Positions 8,826 to 62,355 of a stretch of DNA of 64,000 nt are shown one piece after another (the stretch's first letter is position 1; the number at the start of each line of letters is the position of its first letter). The notes under the pieces were generated by a model. It made no database searches, was not told the origin of the DNA, and worked only from the letters and a program-made list of their open reading frames with translations. A program made the position numbers and the translations under genes. Where the stretch lies: assembly GCA_045047305.1 (NCBI GenBank), contig JASFYO010000010.1, forward strand, positions 4,680 through 68,679, written 5' to 3'. Source of the stretch: Planctomycetota bacterium (GTDB lineage Bacteria; Planctomycetota; UBA1135).

Positions 8826-9647
8826 CTATCCAGTGGCGCCGGGCAAGGTAGAAAACCAAGCCAGAATCAACAGACAGACAGCCACTGCAATTGCCACGTG
8901 AACATTACGCATAGTTGCATGCTGCAAGGTTGAGTGCATCTTGCGATCCCATGCCGTGGACCCATGATCTACATATTCCTTAAAGGCCAACCCCTGAAAT
9001 AGCAGGTTCATCGGGAATAGACCAAGGCACATACCCTGCACCATAACCATCACAGCTCGACGAAAGGCTTCACCATAGGTTAGTAATCGGTTTTCCTCAT
9101 GCACCACCCGAATGCGGAAAATCCACTTGCCGGGGGTCATCCCCCATTTTGAGAGTGCATAAGACTCAAAAATAGCGAGTACACCGAAAGTGACCAGAGC
9201 ACTGAAAAGAAGATTCGCTATGGTTACCTCAGAGGCGCTTTCTACTGGAACCAGCAAGCTCAACAAAATCATCACTAGGTGGTAATCAATGAGCCGTGCG
9301 AGGAAACGGTTCCAGGCCAAACGCATACGCGCTGACTGGGCCGGAGTCCGGCTCCCCGAACCGCCACTTATGGTCTCGGCGGCGCTAGCGAAAGGATTAG
9401 AGCGCACACTTGCACTCGCGGTCGAAGGTGCAGCCTTTGGCTGTACAACTGGAACTGGTTCTGGGGACGGGGGCGCGGGGCGGTAAAGCGCTGGCACCTT
9501 CTCTGCAGAAGCCCAATCCGACATGCCCTTAGACCAGACCTTTATGTCTACCGGGAGGTTCCCACCCAGCAACATGCTGCGCAACTCATCCTCGGCGATA
9601 GGCCCCTTCTGTTGGTCCCCGAGCGCGTAATACCATTCCGCGCTCAT
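8826..9647 (-). CDS. GYF_2 (DUF4339) plus RDD family membrane protein
   Basis: N-terminal WYY...QQKGP...VWSKGMSDW; Pro-rich linker; RDD motifs RFLARLID, TPGKWIFRIRV and WD. Confidence 0.85.
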   Translation of the reverse strand: MSAEWYYALGDQQKGPIAEDELRSMLLGGNLPVDIKVWSKGMSDWASAEKVPALYRPAPPSPEPVPVVQPKAAPSTASASVRSNPFASAAETISGGSGSRTPAQSARMRLAWNRFLARLIDYHLVMILLSLLVPVESASEVTIANLLFSALVTFGVLAIFESYALSKWGMTPGKWIFRIRVVHEENRLLTYGEAFRRAVMVMVQGMCLGLFPMNLLFQGLAFKEYVDHGSTAWDRKMHSTLQHATMRNVHVAIAVAVCLLILAWFSTLPGATG

Positions 9648-9994
9648 GACTTGGTCGCCTCGTCATACATAGGTTCACAATAGCCAACCACTAGGGTGCG
9701 GCCGAGACGCAACGTTGGGGCGCGTAAATTTCCAGTGGGTCCTAACATGGTCTTCCTTGCTTGCTCCGATACCTTTAGGTCCGAGCTAAGGTATTTTACA
9801 TACTTTTTACCGCGCCCGATGAACACTTGATCCACCTTGTCTAGAAGAGCACGGGCGGCGCTTGCCCCTTGAGGCTCTTTGCGCGCGTCGACCATCTGAG
9901 AGGCCTCGAAACCGTGTTTCTGCAGATAACTATCCGCATGGGTGCACGACGTTCAGCTCTTCCGATGCAGGTACCAATCAAGAGTCAAAGCCAT
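9644..9994 (-). CDS. ArsC/Spx-like thioredoxin-fold selenoprotein (UxxC), 116 aa with Sec at codon 14
   Basis: ATG 9994 reads MALTLDWYLHRKS-TGA-TSC..., in frame with the 83-aa ORF-track fragment ending MLGPTGNLRAPTLRLGRTLVVGY; SECIS-like hairpin downstream of the TGA. Confidence 0.85.
9921..9938 (-). promoter_or_regulatory. Putative bacterial SECIS element
   Basis: mRNA UGCGGAU-AGUU-AUCUGCA forms a 7-bp stem with a G-containing tetraloop starting 22 nt after the UGA at 9955-9953. Confidence 0.75.
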
Positions 9995-10022
9995 GAGGCC
10001 ATTGTACCCGCAAGTCCACCCT

Positions 10023-10898
10023 CTAAGGGTTGGCCTTGCGAACTCTTGCCCAGAATGCGGCAACCAAAGCCCAGGCAGCGGCAGCACAAACTGCGGAAGG
10101 GCCATATGGCCAATCTAGCTCTAAAGACAAGGGCCAAGCTACCAGAACACAACCGATGCCGACACCCAAAACATGCAGTAGGAATTGGTTCATGTTGTGC
10201 GCAAGTGACCTTGCCGCCAACGGAGGTAAAAACAACAAACCAAAAACCAAAATTGGCCCCACGGTCATGACACCAGCTCCAATGGTGAAACCAATGAGTA
10301 GCAACTGCAAAATTTCAACCAACTTCACCGGCAAGCCTAAGGAGACCGCTTGGTCGTGATCAAAAGCGGAAACGATAAGGGCTTTACGGAATCCAATGAG
10401 GAAAATGAAACACAGCACACTGGCACTCGACAGCACCATCAGCCCGTGAATGTCTAAGAGTAAGACTTCTCCGCGCATCATCGTTTCAGCAAGGTTATTA
10501 CCTGCCGGCGCCGAGGTCAGAAACAAAATGGACAAGGCAGATGCGGTTGCAAAAGCACCGGCCAAAACTGCGCCGGAATCCCGCGGACCTTTTGCCATGG
10601 CACCAAATACGGCAAGGGCTAAACATGCCGAACCAGCCGCGAATGGCAATAGGTAAGACATGGGCGGATGTCCATGATCGAGGAAATAGGCGCTCATGGT
10701 GGGAAACCATGGCAACAACAGAAGACCCAGTGCAATCCCAGCTGCGGCGAACTGCGGTACCGCAATCCCTAAGAAAGCTTCGCGGCGCAAGAACATTAAG
10801 GCTCCAATGAGAGGCATGACAATGCCAACCACTAGGGAAGCCAGAAAACTCAAGCCAAACAGCTCACGGTAAAGGTCGAAATCTTGAATTAAGTCCAT
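10023..10898 (-). CDS. znuB: Zn/Mn ABC transporter permease (ZnuB/MntB family)
   Basis: LRREAFLGIAVPQFAAAGIA, AFDHDQAVSLGL, VGPILVFGLLFLPPLAA; operon context. Confidence 0.85.
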   Translation of the reverse strand: MDLIQDFDLYRELFGLSFLASLVVGIVMPLIGALMFLRREAFLGIAVPQFAAAGIALGLLLLPWFPTMSAYFLDHGHPPMSYLLPFAAGSACLALAVFGAMAKGPRDSGAVLAGAFATASALSILFLTSAPAGNNLAETMMRGEVLLLDIHGLMVLSSASVLCFIFLIGFRKALIVSAFDHDQAVSLGLPVKLVEILQLLLIGFTIGAGVMTVGPILVFGLLFLPPLAARSLAHNMNQFLLHVLGVGIGCVLVAWPLSLELDWPYGPSAVCAAAAWALVAAFWARVRKANP

Positions 10899-11569
10899 AA
10901 TTTCTCCAAGCCCTCGGCGCTACACATGATTTGCGGAGGAAGCTCTTCAAGCAAGCCGTTCTTCACCAGGATAGAACGATTCACGTGATTGCGTAAAGCC
11001 AAAGGTTGATGGCTCACTAGGACAATGGAAGTCCCCACCAGCATTTGTTGCTTCAACAATTCTAAAATGATCGAGGTTGCCCGTGCGTCGACTCCGGAAA
11101 CCGGTTCATCCAAAAGCAGGAAATTGGGCTTTAGCACGAGTGAACGAGCGAGCAGGACGCGCTGTTTCTGCCCCCCAGACAAGCGCCCAAAAGCTTGCTT
11201 CAGTCTGGCCTCCATAGAAACTAAGGCAAGAGCGTGATGTACGCGTTGTTTCCTTTCCTGCGAGTTCAAACGCACCCCTTTACCCCATAGGCCCATTTGG
11301 ACCACATCTGAAACGGATGCGGGGAAGCCTGCATCGAGTTGTAGTTGCTGCGGAACGTATCCGAGAATCAGGTCCGAGGAAGCCTCACGCCTTCCTTTGA
11401 GTGTTGGCAACACACCCAACAAACTGCGCACCAGGGTGCTTTTCCCAGCACCATTGGCTCCAGCCAACAACAGGAAATCCCCTTCCTCAATGCTCAGGTT
11501 TACATTTTCCAGTACCGCACTTCCTGTTTGATAGCCAAGGTTCGCATCGACTAACCGTAAACGGCTCAT
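10889..11569 (-). CDS. znuC: Zn/Mn ABC transporter ATP-binding protein
   Basis: GANGAGKS, GYVPQ, FPASVSDVVQMG, LSGGQKQR, LLLDEP. Confidence 0.9.
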   Translation of the reverse strand: MSRLRLVDANLGYQTGSAVLENVNLSIEEGDFLLLAGANGAGKSTLVRSLLGVLPTLKGRREASSDLILGYVPQQLQLDAGFPASVSDVVQMGLWGKGVRLNSQERKQRVHHALALVSMEARLKQAFGRLSGGQKQRVLLARSLVLKPNFLLLDEPVSGVDARATSIILELLKQQMLVGTSIVLVSHQPLALRNHVNRSILVKNGLLEELPPQIMCSAEGLEKLWT

Positions 11570-12513
11570 GAGGGTTTCTCCCCATTCTCCTGCGCTTCTG
11601 GCTTGGGCAAGCCATAAGCCTGGCGCATTTGCAAAATGAGAAATTCAATGTAATCCAAATACTCGACCTGGTCTTTGCGCAACCCACTTGTAGTAGCCAC
11701 CTTGACCACGTGCAGGTCATCCTGCATCAAGCTCCGTAAACGTTGCTCGTTGTACCACGGTTCCATGAGCAGCATGTTCACATGCTGTGCTTGAATCACC
11801 TTCTTCACATTCACTAAATGTTTGGCACTGGGCGATAAGCCGGGTTTCGGCTCAATCTCCGCCGCAACCTCTAAACCATAACGCTTGGTGAAATAGGACC
11901 AACTCCGATGGTAAGTCACCACAGCCTTCCCCTTTAGGGGGGCCATCCAACCTTGCCATTTCTTAATCCGAGCCTGCGCTTCGGTGTCCCAATCCAAGAA
12001 TCGTTGTTGGAATTCAGATTTCCACTGGGGCGCCAGAGCCACCAGTAAATCATATGCGGCGCGGGCCATAATGCGGCCATTCTCGGGATCCAAATTGTAG
12101 TGAGGATTTCCACGCGGATGCAAATCTGCGCCTTGGCCTCGACTCAAAGTCTCCGGGACTTCGAGCGGAGTAATGCGCGTCCCCACATTCATATAACCCA
12201 CTCCACCTGGGCGTATAGAATTCTTGCGCGTCTTCTCCAAAAGAGCAGGCAGAAAAGCGTGCTCGTAGTCTAAACCCATCAAAATGAGTCCATCGGCACG
12301 GCTTAACTTAAGCAGTAACGATGCTTTGGGAAGAATCGAGTGCGGATCGTTTCCTGGCGGGACCAACACTTGCACATGAACATGGTCGCCCCCGATGGTG
12401 GAAACCAGATTCCCTAAATCGGGAATCGTGGCGACGATTTCAAGACGATCCTGCGCGATGGCCGGAGCGCCACAGAAAAGCAAAAGGAATGTGGTGAGTA
12501 GAGCATTTTTCAT
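11566..12513 (-). CDS. znuA: Zn/Mn ABC substrate-binding protein (cluster A-I, ZnuA/TroA)
   Basis: Signal peptide; DPH, HPRGNPHYNLDP, TYHRSWSYF, EPKPG metal-binding motifs. Confidence 0.9.
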   Translation of the reverse strand: MKNALLTTFLLLFCGAPAIAQDRLEIVATIPDLGNLVSTIGGDHVHVQVLVPPGNDPHSILPKASLLLKLSRADGLILMGLDYEHAFLPALLEKTRKNSIRPGGVGYMNVGTRITPLEVPETLSRGQGADLHPRGNPHYNLDPENGRIMARAAYDLLVALAPQWKSEFQQRFLDWDTEAQARIKKWQGWMAPLKGKAVVTYHRSWSYFTKRYGLEVAAEIEPKPGLSPSAKHLVNVKKVIQAQHVNMLLMEPWYNEQRLRSLMQDDLHVVKVATTSGLRKDQVEYLDYIEFLILQMRQAYGLPKPEAQENGEKPS

Positions 12514-12515
12514 GA

Positions 12516-13799
12516 CTACCAGTCCAAAGGATGACTATGACTACCCAGAATGATGTCCCACTGCACTGCAAGAGACCATACTGCTGAGGATCCCACCGCC
12601 AGATCTTGTGTTACTTGCGTACGCAGGCGATTAAATTCACTGAAGTTATGGGTAACAAAGACACCGCGTTGCCCACCCGCTTGTGCCGAAGAAAACCAGT
12701 CGCTACCCACCGTATTGAGTGGATCCTGCCACCAGGCAGCTTCTACGCCTGCCCCCCAGTAAGGGTTAAACTCGTATTCGTAAAAGCCCCACAGGCCATT
12801 TGCATCACGGCTTACTTGATTCGAAGCTCCGTCGATGGTGTCGCGCTGGTTGCGCCATAACTCCACCGACCAGGTCGATGCTGAGTGGTCAGAGGCATCG
12901 ACGTCGCGCAAAGTAAGGTCGATAGCGAAGGTGGTTTGACCTAGGCCAAATTCTTGATCCACGATGCCATCGGAATTGGTGTCATTCTGATCCACAATCC
13001 CGCTACCAGTATGGAAAAAGCTCAAGCCATACTGGAAGAAACCATTGACGCCATAGTCTTGTTGCGCCGCCACGCGTCCGGTAAAGCCAAACTCCGAAAA
13101 GTCATGGTTGTCAATCACGCCTGAGCCAAAGCTGCTCCCTTGCGTATGCGGTCCTGGTCCAGTTTGAATCGGGTTACTCGCGCCAAAGGAAGATAATACG
13201 CCCAAAGACCAACGCACCGGGATATCACCCATCCCCGTCCATTGGTTCAATTCAATTCCAGTGCCATTGAGATTGCCACCAAAAAAAGCCGTACGCACAC
13301 CATCTTCAAACACAAAACTTTTATCGTGCAGATGGATGGTGTTCCATTTGCCAAAGTCAGCGAGCATTTTTCCAACACGGAGACTCATGTTGGCGGGGAG
13401 CTGATCCATGATTAAGGCAGCTTCTTCTACAGAAAAAATGTCATCTTCGTACGCGATGACGGCGTAAGCCCAACCAAGCGGATCAATCCGACTGGCGAGA
13501 TCAATTTCCACGCTGCGCATGTCAAAGCCGTCGACCCCGGCTCCACGTTCCTCGCTAAAGGTAGCTAGGCCATCGAAAATCAACCCCATTGCGGGATTAA
13601 AACTAGGGTCGAAGCGCGAGGTGAATCCGGAACCACCGCCGCCCATGGTCCCAGGGAAAGTGGTGTCGAGCATGCGACTGTTTAAGGTATCTTCGAGGTC
13701 ATCGCCCTCGGTTTGCGCAAAAGCGGATTGCACGCAGAAAATCGACAAAAGGAGGGTGGCGCAAATGCCACCAAAGGAATTAGGTAAGGTCAAATCCAT
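12516..13799 (-). CDS. Outer-membrane beta-barrel of the type associated with Zn ABC systems
   Basis: Signal peptide; FNPAMGLIFDG, VEEAAL, GKMLADFGKWNTIHLH; amphipathic beta strands; His-containing C-terminus GSHSHPLDW. Confidence 0.75.
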   Translation of the reverse strand: MDLTLPNSFGGICATLLLSIFCVQSAFAQTEGDDLEDTLNSRMLDTTFPGTMGGGGSGFTSRFDPSFNPAMGLIFDGLATFSEERGAGVDGFDMRSVEIDLASRIDPLGWAYAVIAYEDDIFSVEEAALIMDQLPANMSLRVGKMLADFGKWNTIHLHDKSFVFEDGVRTAFFGGNLNGTGIELNQWTGMGDIPVRWSLGVLSSFGASNPIQTGPGPHTQGSSFGSGVIDNHDFSEFGFTGRVAAQQDYGVNGFFQYGLSFFHTGSGIVDQNDTNSDGIVDQEFGLGQTTFAIDLTLRDVDASDHSASTWSVELWRNQRDTIDGASNQVSRDANGLWGFYEYEFNPYWGAGVEAAWWQDPLNTVGSDWFSSAQAGGQRGVFVTHNFSEFNRLRTQVTQDLAVGSSAVWSLAVQWDIILGSHSHPLDW

Positions 13800-13823
13800 G
13801 AGTAGGGAGTGGGTAAACGGAAG

Positions 13824-13848
13824 CTCAATCGACCCGAAGTCGATTGAG
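13824..13848 (-). promoter_or_regulatory. Strong hairpin between the leader ORF and the barrel gene (possible attenuator element)
   Basis: Perfect 10-bp inverted repeat CTCAATCGAC-TTCGG-GTCGATTGAG, 12 nt after the leader stop; no long U-tract. Confidence 0.6.
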
Positions 13849-13859
13849 GAATTAAATCG

Positions 13860-14126
13860 TTACCTTGACCGCGGTGGTGCTCGTCCGCAGTAGTTCTTCA
13901 CCACCGTAGACTCGGGCATCTGGGTCTGCATGATGCCCCTTACCTGGATGCGCCAGAAAAACATGAGTAAAATGACCCATCCACTGACACTCATTAAAAC
14001 CACCCCATTTCCGCAAAGCGCAAAGGGGCCACAGTCCTGGCCCGCTTGATGCAACGGAGCATGCATCAAGCCGGCAAGCAAAAGCAAGCCGAGCAGCAGC
14101 CAACCGAGGCGTTGCACCATGGACAT
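13860..14126 (-). CDS. Putative DUF2946/CruR-like metal-sensing leader peptide with a C-terminal RAPP arrest motif
   Basis: N-terminal signal/TM segment, HAPLH, CGPFALC, a second hydrophobic segment, ends CGRAPPRSR*; first ORF of the metal uptake operon. Confidence 0.72.
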   Translation of the reverse strand: MSMVQRLGWLLLGLLLLAGLMHAPLHQAGQDCGPFALCGNGVVLMSVSGWVILLMFFWRIQVRGIMQTQMPESTVVKNYCGRAPPRSR

Positions 14127-14166
14127 GTGTGTAGTGTAGTCGCCGATTCGTTAGATTGTCCAGTAC

Positions 14167-14976
14167 ATGTTGCGCATCCATACCCTCGCCAGCGGTTCCT
14201 CTGGGAATTGCGCCCTGATTGAGGCTGGGACTGGAGTCAACCGCGTGGTGCTGTGCTTGGATTCAGGAATCGCCCAACGTACGGCACGTGGATTCGCCGA
14301 GGCAGTCGGTCTGTCCATGACCTCGGTTGATGCCGTTTTGCTCACCCACCGGCATAGCGACCACTCGGCGAATATTGTGCCGACGGCCTCGCGCGCCCAA
14401 GCTCCACTCTATGCCCACTCGGAAAGCCTCGGCACCAATCAACGCACCAGCATGGCCGAGATTACTCGCCGCAATGTCGAGGTGCGGAACTTCGTGGATC
14501 GTGGTTTCTTTAAAATCGGGCCTTTAGTGGTGACCCCAATCCAACTCCCCCACGACGCCGACCCTACCTTTGGATTCGTGTTTGAAACCGCCACTTCCAA
14601 AGCTGGTTTCTTCACCGATCTTGGACGCCCGGAAATCCTCATGCAACCAGGCCTGCTCGACGGCATGGAAACCTTGATACTGGAATCGAATCACGACGTA
14701 GAGATGTTAGCCAAAGGCCCTTATCCCCGCGCATTGCGTCAACGGGTTGGTGGAGATCTAGGGCACCTTTCCAATGCGCAAACTTTTGAAATCTTGGCTT
14801 CATCCGCACCAAAGACTTTGCAGCGCCTGGTGTTGGCACATCTATCGTTAAAGAATAACACCCAGAAGATGGCCCTAGAGAATGCACACGCAGCCCTACT
14901 GCAGCGTGGACTCAAGGATGTTCAATTGCACGTTGCACCTGCGCGAGGCCCCTTAGCGCGTAAGCTGCCCATGTAA
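14167..14976 (+). CDS. MBL-fold metallo-hydrolase (YycJ/WalJ-like)
   Basis: LASGSSGN, THRHSDH, PHDA, TDLG, LESNHD, GHLSN, LAHLS. Confidence 0.9.
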   Translation: MLRIHTLASGSSGNCALIEAGTGVNRVVLCLDSGIAQRTARGFAEAVGLSMTSVDAVLLTHRHSDHSANIVPTASRAQAPLYAHSESLGTNQRTSMAEITRRNVEVRNFVDRGFFKIGPLVVTPIQLPHDADPTFGFVFETATSKAGFFTDLGRPEILMQPGLLDGMETLILESNHDVEMLAKGPYPRALRQRVGGDLGHLSNAQTFEILASSAPKTLQRLVLAHLSLKNNTQKMALENAHAALLQRGLKDVQLHVAPARGPLARKLPM

Positions 14977-60947: not shown

Positions 60948-62355
60948 CGTCCATGGAAAACGCGGCAAGGAACTCCTGGTTCGATGGATATCGAGCCAAA
61001 CGATCAATCAGCATTTCCATTGCTTCGCGGGAGCGCATACGGCTCAAAACACGGCGCAGAATGTTGATTTTGCGCAGAGTCGTGCGCGACAACAAACGTT
61101 CTTCTTTTCGCGTTGCCGTTTGCTCAATCGAAACCGCTGGGTAGATGCGACGATCAGCCAATCGGCGATCAAGGGTCAGCTCCATATTGCCGGTGCCCTT
61201 AAACTCCTCATAGATGACTTGATCCATGCGCGAGCCAGTGTCGACCAATGCAGTCGCTAGGATCGTCAGCGAACCGCCATCCTCGGTGTTTCGCGCTGCG
61301 CCAAAAAAGTGCTTCGGGCGCTGAAACACCCGTGCATCCAAACCACCAGACATGGTGCGCGAGTCTTTGCCGCCCCCCATCGTATTGTTGAAGGCCCGAG
61401 TCATACGGGTAATCGAATCCAGCAAGATCATGACTTCCTTGCCCGTTTCCACTAAGCGTTCAGCACGAAACTGCACCAGTTCCGACAACCGTGCATGATT
61501 CTTCGGTGATTGGTCCATCGTGCTTACGAAGACCTCACCATTCTTGATCGAACGGCGCCAATAAGTGGCTTCTTCGGGACGCTCATCGACCAGCAACACA
61601 ATCAAGTGAACATCTGGATAAAGCGCTTCCATGGCATTTGCCACAGCCATCATCAAAGTGGTCTTTCCAGTACGCGGAGGCGCAACCAGCAAACCACGTT
61701 GGCCGCGCCCAATCGGGCACAGCAAATCCAAAATACGCATGGAGAGTTGGTTCTCTTGCTCAAAGCCTCCCAACTCAAAATGAAAGTCAGGGTCAATCAC
61801 AGTGAGGTTCTTAAACCCACGCTGCTTGCGTAGTTCGTCCACGGTGAAGCCGTCCACCGTTTCAATCGAAGTGACGCGCGCGCTTTGATGACCGCGGCCC
61901 TTCATGCCCTTACCCACAATCAGGGAACCGTTTTTCAAACCATTCCGCTGTACCATTGGCTGTGGAATCATCGGATCGCTTGGTTTTTCGGCGAGGTCAT
62001 TGACTAGCTGACGTAAAAAGCCAGTACCGTCTTTGCGTAAATCCAAGATACCGGAGACCTCTTCGAGCTCACCACCACGAGGCTCAGCTTGAGAACGTGC
62101 GCGCGCTCCTCTTCCGCCACCACCCTTCTGTTCATTGCGTCCACGCGGAGCTTGGCCAGCTTCACGTGGTGCCCTATCTGGGCGTTGACGACGACGGCGA
62201 CGTTGTGTATTTCCGGAGGACTCGCCGGAGGCAGCACCATTTTCTCCACAATCAGGCTTCTCCGCAGCTACGGATGATCCTGGATCTTGGATGGGATTAC
62301 GACGCCTTCGACGACGCCTACGCTTTGCCGGCTGTTGGCTTTGTTCTTCAGTCAT
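60937..62355 (-). CDS. rho: Transcription termination factor Rho with an Arg-rich N-terminal extension
   Basis: GTGFLR, PIGRGQRGLLVAPPRTGKT, LLDSITR, SGG, FFGAARN, IYEEFKGTGNMEL; start taken at MTEEQ (62355). Confidence 0.97.
   Translation of the reverse strand: MTEEQSQQPAKRRRRRRRRNPIQDPGSSVAAEKPDCGENGAASGESSGNTQRRRRRQRPDRAPREAGQAPRGRNEQKGGGGRGARARSQAEPRGGELEEVSGILDLRKDGTGFLRQLVNDLAEKPSDPMIPQPMVQRNGLKNGSLIVGKGMKGRGHQSARVTSIETVDGFTVDELRKQRGFKNLTVIDPDFHFELGGFEQENQLSMRILDLLCPIGRGQRGLLVAPPRTGKTTLMMAVANAMEALYPDVHLIVLLVDERPEEATYWRRSIKNGEVFVSTMDQSPKNHARLSELVQFRAERLVETGKEVMILLDSITRMTRAFNNTMGGGKDSRTMSGGLDARVFQRPKHFFGAARNTEDGGSLTILATALVDTGSRMDQVIYEEFKGTGNMELTLDRRLADRRIYPAVSIEQTATRKEERLLSRTTLRKINILRRVLSRMRSREAMEMLIDRLARYPSNQEFLAAFSMDDVA

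Follow-up and report, generated by a model that had tools for sequence, protein, structure and literature searches.

A candidate metal-sensing arrest leader with an RAPP motif heads a porin and zinc-type importer operon in Planctomycetota

In a planctomycete contig, a small leader peptide ending in an RAPP motif is the first gene of an operon that encodes a porin and a ZnuA/C/B-type importer. By analogy with the copper sensor CruR, we propose with moderate confidence that the leader stalls its own ribosome at RAPP and keeps the porin and importer on until a metal, probably zinc, releases the ribosome. The parts of this proposal differ in strength. Control of the operon by an arrest leader is very likely, a metal is likely to be the signal, and a helix at the porin start codon is probably the main output. 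The CruR-like arrest-leader reading is supported by the conservation of the leader, the fixed spacing between its cysteines and RAPP, transitive matches to DUF2946, the zinc-type nature of the operon, and a predicted and conserved RNA helix that the footprint of a stalled ribosome would cover. Positions are those of the window, i.e., the whole stretch of 64,000 nucleotides that was analyzed (Table 1).

Table 1. Features of the leader and of the operon that follows it (positions in the window)
Feature	Positions	Strand	Basis and remarks
Sigma70-like promoter, TGGACA-18-TACACT	14133..14162	-	-10 box ends 6 nt before leader ATG
Leader ORF (arrest-peptide candidate), 88 aa	13860..14126	-	Conservation and purifying selection
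First hydrophobic segment, residues 7-21, signal or anchor	14064..14108	-	13-residue hydropathy 2.49; AlphaFold helix 3-25
Candidate metal site H22, H26, C32, C38 (HxxxH ... Cx5C)	14013..14063	-	Ligand conservation
Second hydrophobic helix (residues 40-63), mainly a trait of the Cx5C clade	13938..14009	-	AlphaFold helix 40-63, pTM 0.38
Putative RAPP arrest motif, R82-P85	13872..13883	-	Followed by RSR-stop; R, P, P invariant
Last leader codons and stop: 5' strand of predicted switch helix, under the putative stalled ribosome	13858..13870	-	Centroid and MFE structure, pair probabilities
Inner intergenic hairpin with a perfect stem of 10 bp and a weak terminator-like tail	13824..13848	-	Folding, terminator scoring
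Porin start region; predicted leader-end partners 13819-13812 and 13793-13782, on both sides of ATG 13799	13782..13819	-	Folding; no Shine-Dalgarno
Porin (beta-barrel), 427 aa	12516..13799	-	AlphaFold barrel, pLDDT 74.9; ESM Atlas score 0.98
ZnuA-family solute-binding protein, His58, His138, His202	11566..12513	-	PF01297
ABC ATPase (ZnuC/AztA-like)	10889..11569	-	Pfam, NCBIfam
ABC-3 permease (ZnuB/AztB-like)	10023..10898	-	Pfam, NCBIfam

Re-translation of 14126-13860 on the minus strand agrees with an earlier sequence-only reading of this DNA, which had described an 88-aa ORF 60 nt before the barrel gene. The barrel ATG is at 13799, and the 40-nt upstream gap leads to a divergent metallo-hydrolase gene at 14167. 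The ORF is free of indels in contigs of two sequencing runs from two studies, X1 and X4, the first of which may be the source sample of the window; runs X2 and X3 yielded no contig here. In X4, 9 synonymous and 4 non-synonymous variants were found, vs 61 and 203 sites, and the variants at H22, L25, P34, and P85 are all silent. The pN value is below pS in all seven equal-length leader pairs (7/7), most strongly in residues 1-40. In three pairs that include the window copy, pN is 0.12-0.34 in this part vs 0.49-0.62 in residues 41-78, which form a fast-evolving linker. These comparisons indicate that the 88-aa leader ORF is a real gene under purifying selection. Its position is also unusual in its genome (G000). 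A frame ending in R[AG]PP is found within 750 nt upstream of only 4 of 1701 long genes, and the leader is the only intergenic and hydrophobic one among nine such frames genome-wide.

The promoter before the leader is the sole promoter-like site in 9500-14500, where 3.3 are expected by chance, and the scan alone is therefore weak. Of the 36 distinct leaders, 27 have a TANNNT box at a distance of 5-9 nt upstream of the start. The same spacing peak is seen across the genome, where 50 of the 267 non-internal starts have this box at spacer 6 and the use of Shine-Dalgarno sequences is weak. Since the -10 box is so close to the start and the same spacing peak is seen genome-wide, the leader mRNA is predicted to be leaderless. 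Judged from these boxes, leaderless-type starts look common in the genome and are not peculiar to the leader gene. The divergent gene, which encodes a metallo-beta-lactamase-fold protein (14167-14976, plus strand), borders on the same 40-nt promoter gap, and its synteny is kept in most loci of the family.

The leader can be divided into an N-terminal hydrophobic segment, a group of potential metal ligands, a linker, and the RAPP tail. The export or TM segment that had been claimed for it is supported by hydropathy and by the AlphaFold model, both of which are predictions; the 13-residue hydropathy of the first segment is at least 1.96 in 35 of 36 leaders. Among 28 aligned leaders, H22 is invariant and H26 is kept in at least 90%. 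HxxxH is present in 33/36 leaders and a Cys pair in 36/36. The pair is spaced as Cx5C in 18/36 (the H[AG]PLH...Cx5C form, window leader included) and as CxxC in 18/36. A second hydrophobic stretch accompanies the wider spacing, with a hydropathy above 1.5 in 15/18 Cx5C leaders vs 2/18 CxxC leaders. In the AlphaFold model (pTM 0.38), the leader is a hairpin of two helices, and the loop that connects them bears the ligands. The ligand set had been called different from that of CruR. This holds for Cx5C and HxxxH with the second helix, but the equal split of the family makes Cx5C one clade's version of CxxC.

The motif itself, located at 13883-13872 and followed by RSR-stop in the sequence-only reading, was reproduced there as residues 82-85. 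R82, P84, and P85 are invariant in the 28 aligned leaders, and the 36 distinct peptides comprise 21 with RAPP and 15 with RGPP. RAPP is written with many synonymous codons across the leaders. Three residues separate the motif from the stop in the window leader, and 1-7 in the family. The distance from the second Cys to the Arg of the motif is 42-47 in all 36 leaders and in both Cys groups, though this Cys stands anywhere from residue 33 to 91; counted as intervening residues up to RAPP, this is 43 in the window leader and 41-46 in the family. Compared with the CxxC group, the Cx5C group has its first Cys displaced outward by about three residues. A Cys directly before RAPP had also been read as a ligand. 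It was rejected as part of the sensor, since a Cys occurs within two residues before the motif in only 4/36 leaders. Long proteins of the genome contain RAPP 4 times vs 13.7 expected and RGPP once vs 11.4 expected. Against this evidence stand KAPP (2 vs 7.7) and RAPA (12 vs 27.6), which are depleted as well. Across Planctomycetota, RAPP and RGPP are rare, with mean biases of 0.19 and 0.15 in the source data of PMC12992588.

Since the gene is real, and since its product has candidate metal ligands and a helical hairpin by prediction, the product could also be an ordinary small membrane protein or a metal chaperone of the operon that acts after release from the ribosome, with no regulatory stall. 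We regard this as the least probable explanation of those considered here. It leaves unexplained why an invariant motif is one that the proteome avoids, why the spacing is fixed across a fast-evolving linker, why the gene comes first in the operon, and why its mRNA is predicted to pair with the next start.

The arrest-leader reading had predicted that the small ORF and its RAPP would be conserved before homologous barrel genes, and this is the case. An upstream frame ending in R[AG]PP is present in 57 of 68 porin loci (69 loci were examined, of which 68 have a porin match), with His22 and R[AG]PP invariant. The 57 leaders collapse to 36 distinct peptides, and the genomes are kin, so that the counts are not independent. 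One further locus (L019) has an intact leader that was found by eye and is outside the 57. In five of the misses (L021, L022, L030, L063, and L065), the upstream DNA is too short. In three others (L026, L029, and L057), the porin and the binding protein are present, and a search upstream for a leader found none. The remaining two, L010 and L039, belong to one genome (G004) with a deletion (L039:4730-6047). Here, an in-frame fusion joins the promoter and the first codons of the leader to a porin that has diverged, and the sensor and RAPP are gone. The ABC genes are absent from the locus, and a search of the genome, which is 87% complete, found no ZnuA. The fused porin is predicted to be either constitutive or decaying.

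A phylum-wide search added 25 loci, 13 of which carry the strict motif. In 11 of the other 12, a frame with a hydrophobic segment, His, and CxxC ends in RAPP (2), RSPP (4), RPPP (4), or RDPP (1). The same-layout leaders with the RDPP, RSPP, or RPPP endings are those at L106, L109-L111, L115, L118, L119, L121, and L124. These endings are candidates for further arrest motifs; if the reading is true, RSPP, RPPP, and RDPP in the same slot elsewhere in the phylum would be further natural ones. RSPP is absent from the long proteins of the window's genome (0 vs 8.5 expected).

Paralogous barrels were compared in 14 regions. None has a ZnuA match, and 13 of the 14 have no upstream frame ending in R[AG]PP. 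The single frame found is an overlapping one without the His/Cys pattern. In three of these regions (L079, L080, and L082, among L072-L085), a paralogous barrel that has no such leader peptide lies upstream of a different ABC system, which looks molybdate-like from the resemblance of its translations.

ApdA, ApdP, and SecM monitor protein export and are not known to have conserved metal ligands. The leader might likewise be a secretion or membrane-insertion monitor of the SecM, ApdA, or MifM kind, whose stall is released by the pulling of the translocon without any metal. Its two hydrophobic helices and the exported protein encoded by the next gene would suit such a role, and RAPP-type motifs were first found in secretion monitors (PMC12992588). 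However, a monitor of this kind would not account for an invariant His and a Cys pair at a fixed distance from the motif. The downstream genes are for metal uptake, not sec or yidC, and the paralogous barrels do without a leader. We therefore consider a metal-independent monitor very unlikely.

The genes behind the leader point to metal uptake. The best fold matches of the 427-aa barrel are the OmpT and OprP porins, and Pfam and NCBIfam scans of it gave no match. Its nearest ESM Atlas clusters are named 'zinc-regulated' receptor, a name that was given automatically. Apart from the binding protein, the genome has no ZnuA-family match. The best solved match of this protein is 2ov1, a zinc-uptake binding protein from a cyanobacterium, and its top solved matches bind zinc. 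The ligands His58, His138, and His202 are kept in 60/60, 59/59, and 58/58 of the homologues that cover each site, and no conserved acidic fourth ligand was seen in these homologues. In ZnuA-type binding proteins, three His ligands go with zinc and His2-Glu-Asp with manganese. With a His conserved at each of the three ligand positions of the binding protein, zinc is more likely than manganese, and of the initial suggestion of a zinc- or manganese-responsive leader, the zinc part is favored. The named relatives are from Planctomycetota. Among 26 downstream ORFs scanned, no zinc-specific accessory gene and no copper gene was found, and the genes for GYF/RDD proteins give no metal clue. A gene at 9644-9994 on the minus strand encodes a selenoprotein of the ArsC family and has its in-frame TGA at 9955-9953 (U-x-x-C). 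It scores 113 bits vs the cut-off of 85 for NF041106 with TGA read as Sec. A TANNNT box of its own is found 6 nt upstream of its ATG, so that it is probably transcribed apart from the importer.

Other metal regulators were sought in the genome, which is 88% complete. It has one Fur-family gene, with 103.9 bits for Fur vs 59.8 for Zur, both under the cut-off; being below every curated cut-off, this protein could act as Zur. Exactly one Fur-family match is found in 28 of 41 genomes of the family. A search for a DtxR/MntR domain in the window's genome found none. A scan with the Caulobacter-type Zur box gave 9 matches vs 12.2 expected, none of them near the promoter, and the planctomycete box may differ; the 40-nt promoter gap contains no inverted repeat. 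Both scans bear out the remark that this gap has no Zur-like palindrome, a lack that fits control through the leader without proving that Zur is absent.

For the identity of the metal, the three-His binding protein, the class name of the receptor, a Fur-family gene closer to Fur than to Zur, and a search that found no DtxR/MntR domain are on the side of zinc. On the side of copper, Cys pairs bind copper well, and both tested relatives, CruR and CutF, sense it. On balance, zinc is rated a little better than an even bet as the metal sensed by the leader. The same arrest leader could respond to another metal (Cu, Ni, Co, or Mn) or to the redox state of its Cys pair, which we hold to be unlikely. 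CruR and CutF do their sensing via Cys motifs, Ni/Co has been suggested for His-only members (Öztürk et al.), cluster A-I binding proteins carry Zn, Mn, or Fe (PMC8811889), and the scanned ORFs offer no zinc-specific accessory gene. Weighing against this are the three-His ligand set with no conserved acidic fourth ligand, the zinc-binding top matches, and the lack of a copper gene in the same scan.

The output of the stall may lie in the RNA between the leader end and the porin start. Folding predicts a helix between these two regions in many homologues, with sequences that differ between species. In a pre-set duplex test, the 30 nt from the P-site proline were paired with the 30 nt before the porin ATG and compared with shuffles. 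A z value below -1.64 was reached by 21 of the 36 homologues and by 11 of the 118 control gene pairs. Because the MAFFT intergenic alignments did not register the helices for per-pair covariation, cognate duplexes were compared with non-cognate ones instead. Cognate duplexes are 6.9 kcal/mol stronger than the row and column means (off-diagonal SD 2.9). When the ribosome footprint is masked, the cost of opening the start region falls by 5.0 kcal/mol on average vs 0.2 in controls. This gain exceeds 2 kcal/mol in 26/36 homologues vs 16/118 controls, and the other 10/36 gain 2 kcal/mol or less. No Shine-Dalgarno sequence is present at the porin start of the window, and 29/36 homologue starts are without an SD-like word.

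The window copy gives a mixed picture. In the pre-set duplex test with 30 nt before the ATG, it was negative (z +0.56, rank 24 of 36). Its opening gain is 1.8 kcal/mol when 40 nt of porin sequence are included, and 19 of 118 controls are as high. With 50-60 nt of porin, a calculation run after the first result, the gain is 5.1-6.0 kcal/mol, and 1 of 77 controls is as high. In the centroid structure, the last codons pair on both sides of the ATG (z -2.68). A stall-opened RNA structure over the downstream initiation region is hence predicted at the family level, and for the window's own copy the prediction depends on the length of sequence folded. A shifted porin start in this genome was also considered and dropped, since the ATG aligns with the ATGs of the relatives.

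The same sensor could instead act by transcription attenuation, as CruR does, with release of the ribosome allowing Rho or the intergenic hairpin to end the transcript before the porin. Rho is present in the genome (C68:2332-3558 and C10:65637-66749), one match being over the TIGR00767 cut-off and the second under it at 428 bits; the Rho-like gene on C10 corresponds to about 60958-62070 of the window (minus strand). C exceeds G in the intergenic region of 35/36 leaders vs 86/118 controls, the skew of 0.38 in the window is matched by 4/118, and the hairpin at 13848-13824 was scored terminator-like. Yet the gap is short (60 nt in the window and 48-189 nt in the family vs 162 nt for CruR), most homologues show no evident U-tail behind the inner hairpin, and the species-specific pairing with the start region points to translation. 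Attenuation as the output is thus improbable, and the two outputs are not mutually exclusive.

With translation as the main output, the following sequence of events can be proposed, in which the stall, topology, metal, and direction of the response are modeled on CruR. The leader would be translated first from the predicted leaderless operon mRNA. By comparison with CruR and ApdA/ApdP, the ribosome would stop with Pro84 and Pro85 in its P and A sites. The stalled ribosome would cover the last codons and the stop, which otherwise pair around the porin start codon, and the start would be freed. At this point, 46-62 residues would separate H22, H26, C32, and C38 from the P-site proline. The four ligands would be outside the tunnel, probably at the translocon or at the periplasmic face. 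Binding of the metal may fold the loop between the two hydrophobic helices and pull the chain free. The released ribosome would then terminate, the helix would form, and porin translation would stop. Polarity, for which Rho is available, may then silence the ABC genes.

A more specific version can be put forward tentatively, at somewhat less than an even chance. A zinc-released arrest sensor would do the job of Zur in this planctomycete lineage. Its His2-Cys2 site, placed in the loop of a membrane hairpin and with the CxxC spacing widened to Cx5C, would read zinc on the nascent chain and gate an SD-less start on a leaderless mRNA. In the literature consulted, the metal-sensing arrest peptides that have been tested, CruR and CutF, are copper-responsive. 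If the leader responds to zinc, nascent-chain sensing would no longer be limited to one metal, and zinc uptake would have a form of control other than Zur. The family also provides natural experiments, such as CxxC vs Cx5C at constant stall distance, leaders with one vs two hydrophobic helices, the motifs RAPP/RGPP/RSPP/RPPP, RNA helices that compensate, and a genome in which leader and importer were lost together. Through them, the selectivity for metals and the origin of the force that releases the ribosome can be tested directly. The leader is expected in outline, yet it is a well-supported candidate for a zinc-sensing arrest peptide.

Kinship with CruR was examined through DUF2946 (PF11162), to which CruR (Bp2923) of Bordetella pertussis belongs (PMC9426467). 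The 88-aa leader itself had no match in scans against Pfam, PF11162 included, and NCBIfam. In the window's genome, a six-frame PF11162 search found nothing over the cut-off and one sub-threshold match broken by stops. Homologues of the leader match weakly, in 9 of 22 aligned sequences with a best E of 4.3e-4, and 2 of 52 scanned profile matches (72 were found) pass the PF11162 cut-off. A profile built from CxxC members only ranks the 88-aa leader above all 300 shuffled decoys. This result holds without the RAPP tail, with a narrow margin of 12.2 bits vs 11.4 for the best decoy. In the ESM Atlas, the leader is closest to unnamed clusters at 0.92-0.93; a cluster containing DUF2946 appears only at 0.87, which is a lead, and the structure matches are generic helical hairpins. 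From these profile comparisons, the leader is remotely homologous to the DUF2946 group through a transitive link only and is not a formal PF11162 member. The sequence-only reading had called it an analogue of CruR. The likeness is upheld by the spacing, conservation, operon, and RNA helix, but the transitive matches speak against analogy alone.

CruR, the arrest of which was shown in vitro (PMC12992588), shares with the leader its place as the first gene of a metal-import operon, an export or TM segment, a Cys pair, and a C-terminal RAPP. The number of residues between Cys and RAPP is nearly identical (45 in CruR and 43 in the leader), and CruR with 5 added residues responds poorly to copper (PMC9426467). 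The logic, as predicted for the leader, is also the same: a stall keeps the operon on, and the metal turns it off. The two differ in that the leader has Cx5C with HxxxH and a second hydrophobic helix, whereas CruR has CxxC. CruR is longer (145 aa vs 88 aa), has its transcription start site 45 nt upstream in place of a predicted leaderless mRNA, and is followed by a gap of 162 nt instead of 60 nt. Downstream of CruR lies a TonB copper transporter in place of the porin and ZnuABC-type importer, and its output is Rho termination, whereas control of translation initiation is predicted for the leader.

CutF of Rhodobacter capsulatus is an exported nascent sensor and, as is predicted for the leader, its stall melts an RNA structure over the next initiation region (PMC9973294; bioRxiv 10.1101/2025.02.05.636593). 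However, copper induces the stall of CutF and turns detoxification on, while the metal is predicted to release the stall of the leader. CutF has CxxxC, a proline-rich tail, and a stem that hides a Shine-Dalgarno sequence, an element that most porin starts of the leader family lack. In ApdA, ApdP, and SecM, a stall of the RAPP/RAGP type opens the RNA structure that covers the next start (PMC12992588), as is predicted for the leader. The same paper reports many RAPP uORFs before metal genes. The word 'zinc' is absent from its main text, and the supplements of PMC9426467, as far as available, hold no ZnuA or zinc entry. In the literature consulted, no zinc-responsive RAPP leader or Cx5C form was found, and further supplements and figures could bear on this. 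The source data 4B of PMC12992588 list at least 9 rows of leaders before a receptor of the same name as the porin clusters, one of them annotated as DUF2946 (QBG48836.1). Like the window leader, these 9 have a hydrophobic segment, His, mostly CxxC, and RAPP; unlike it, none of the 9 listed, which are data-table entries only, has the HAPLH...Cx5C form. We class the leader as a variant of the CruR/CutF kind, and leaders that precede the same receptor class are already present, undiscussed, in these source data.
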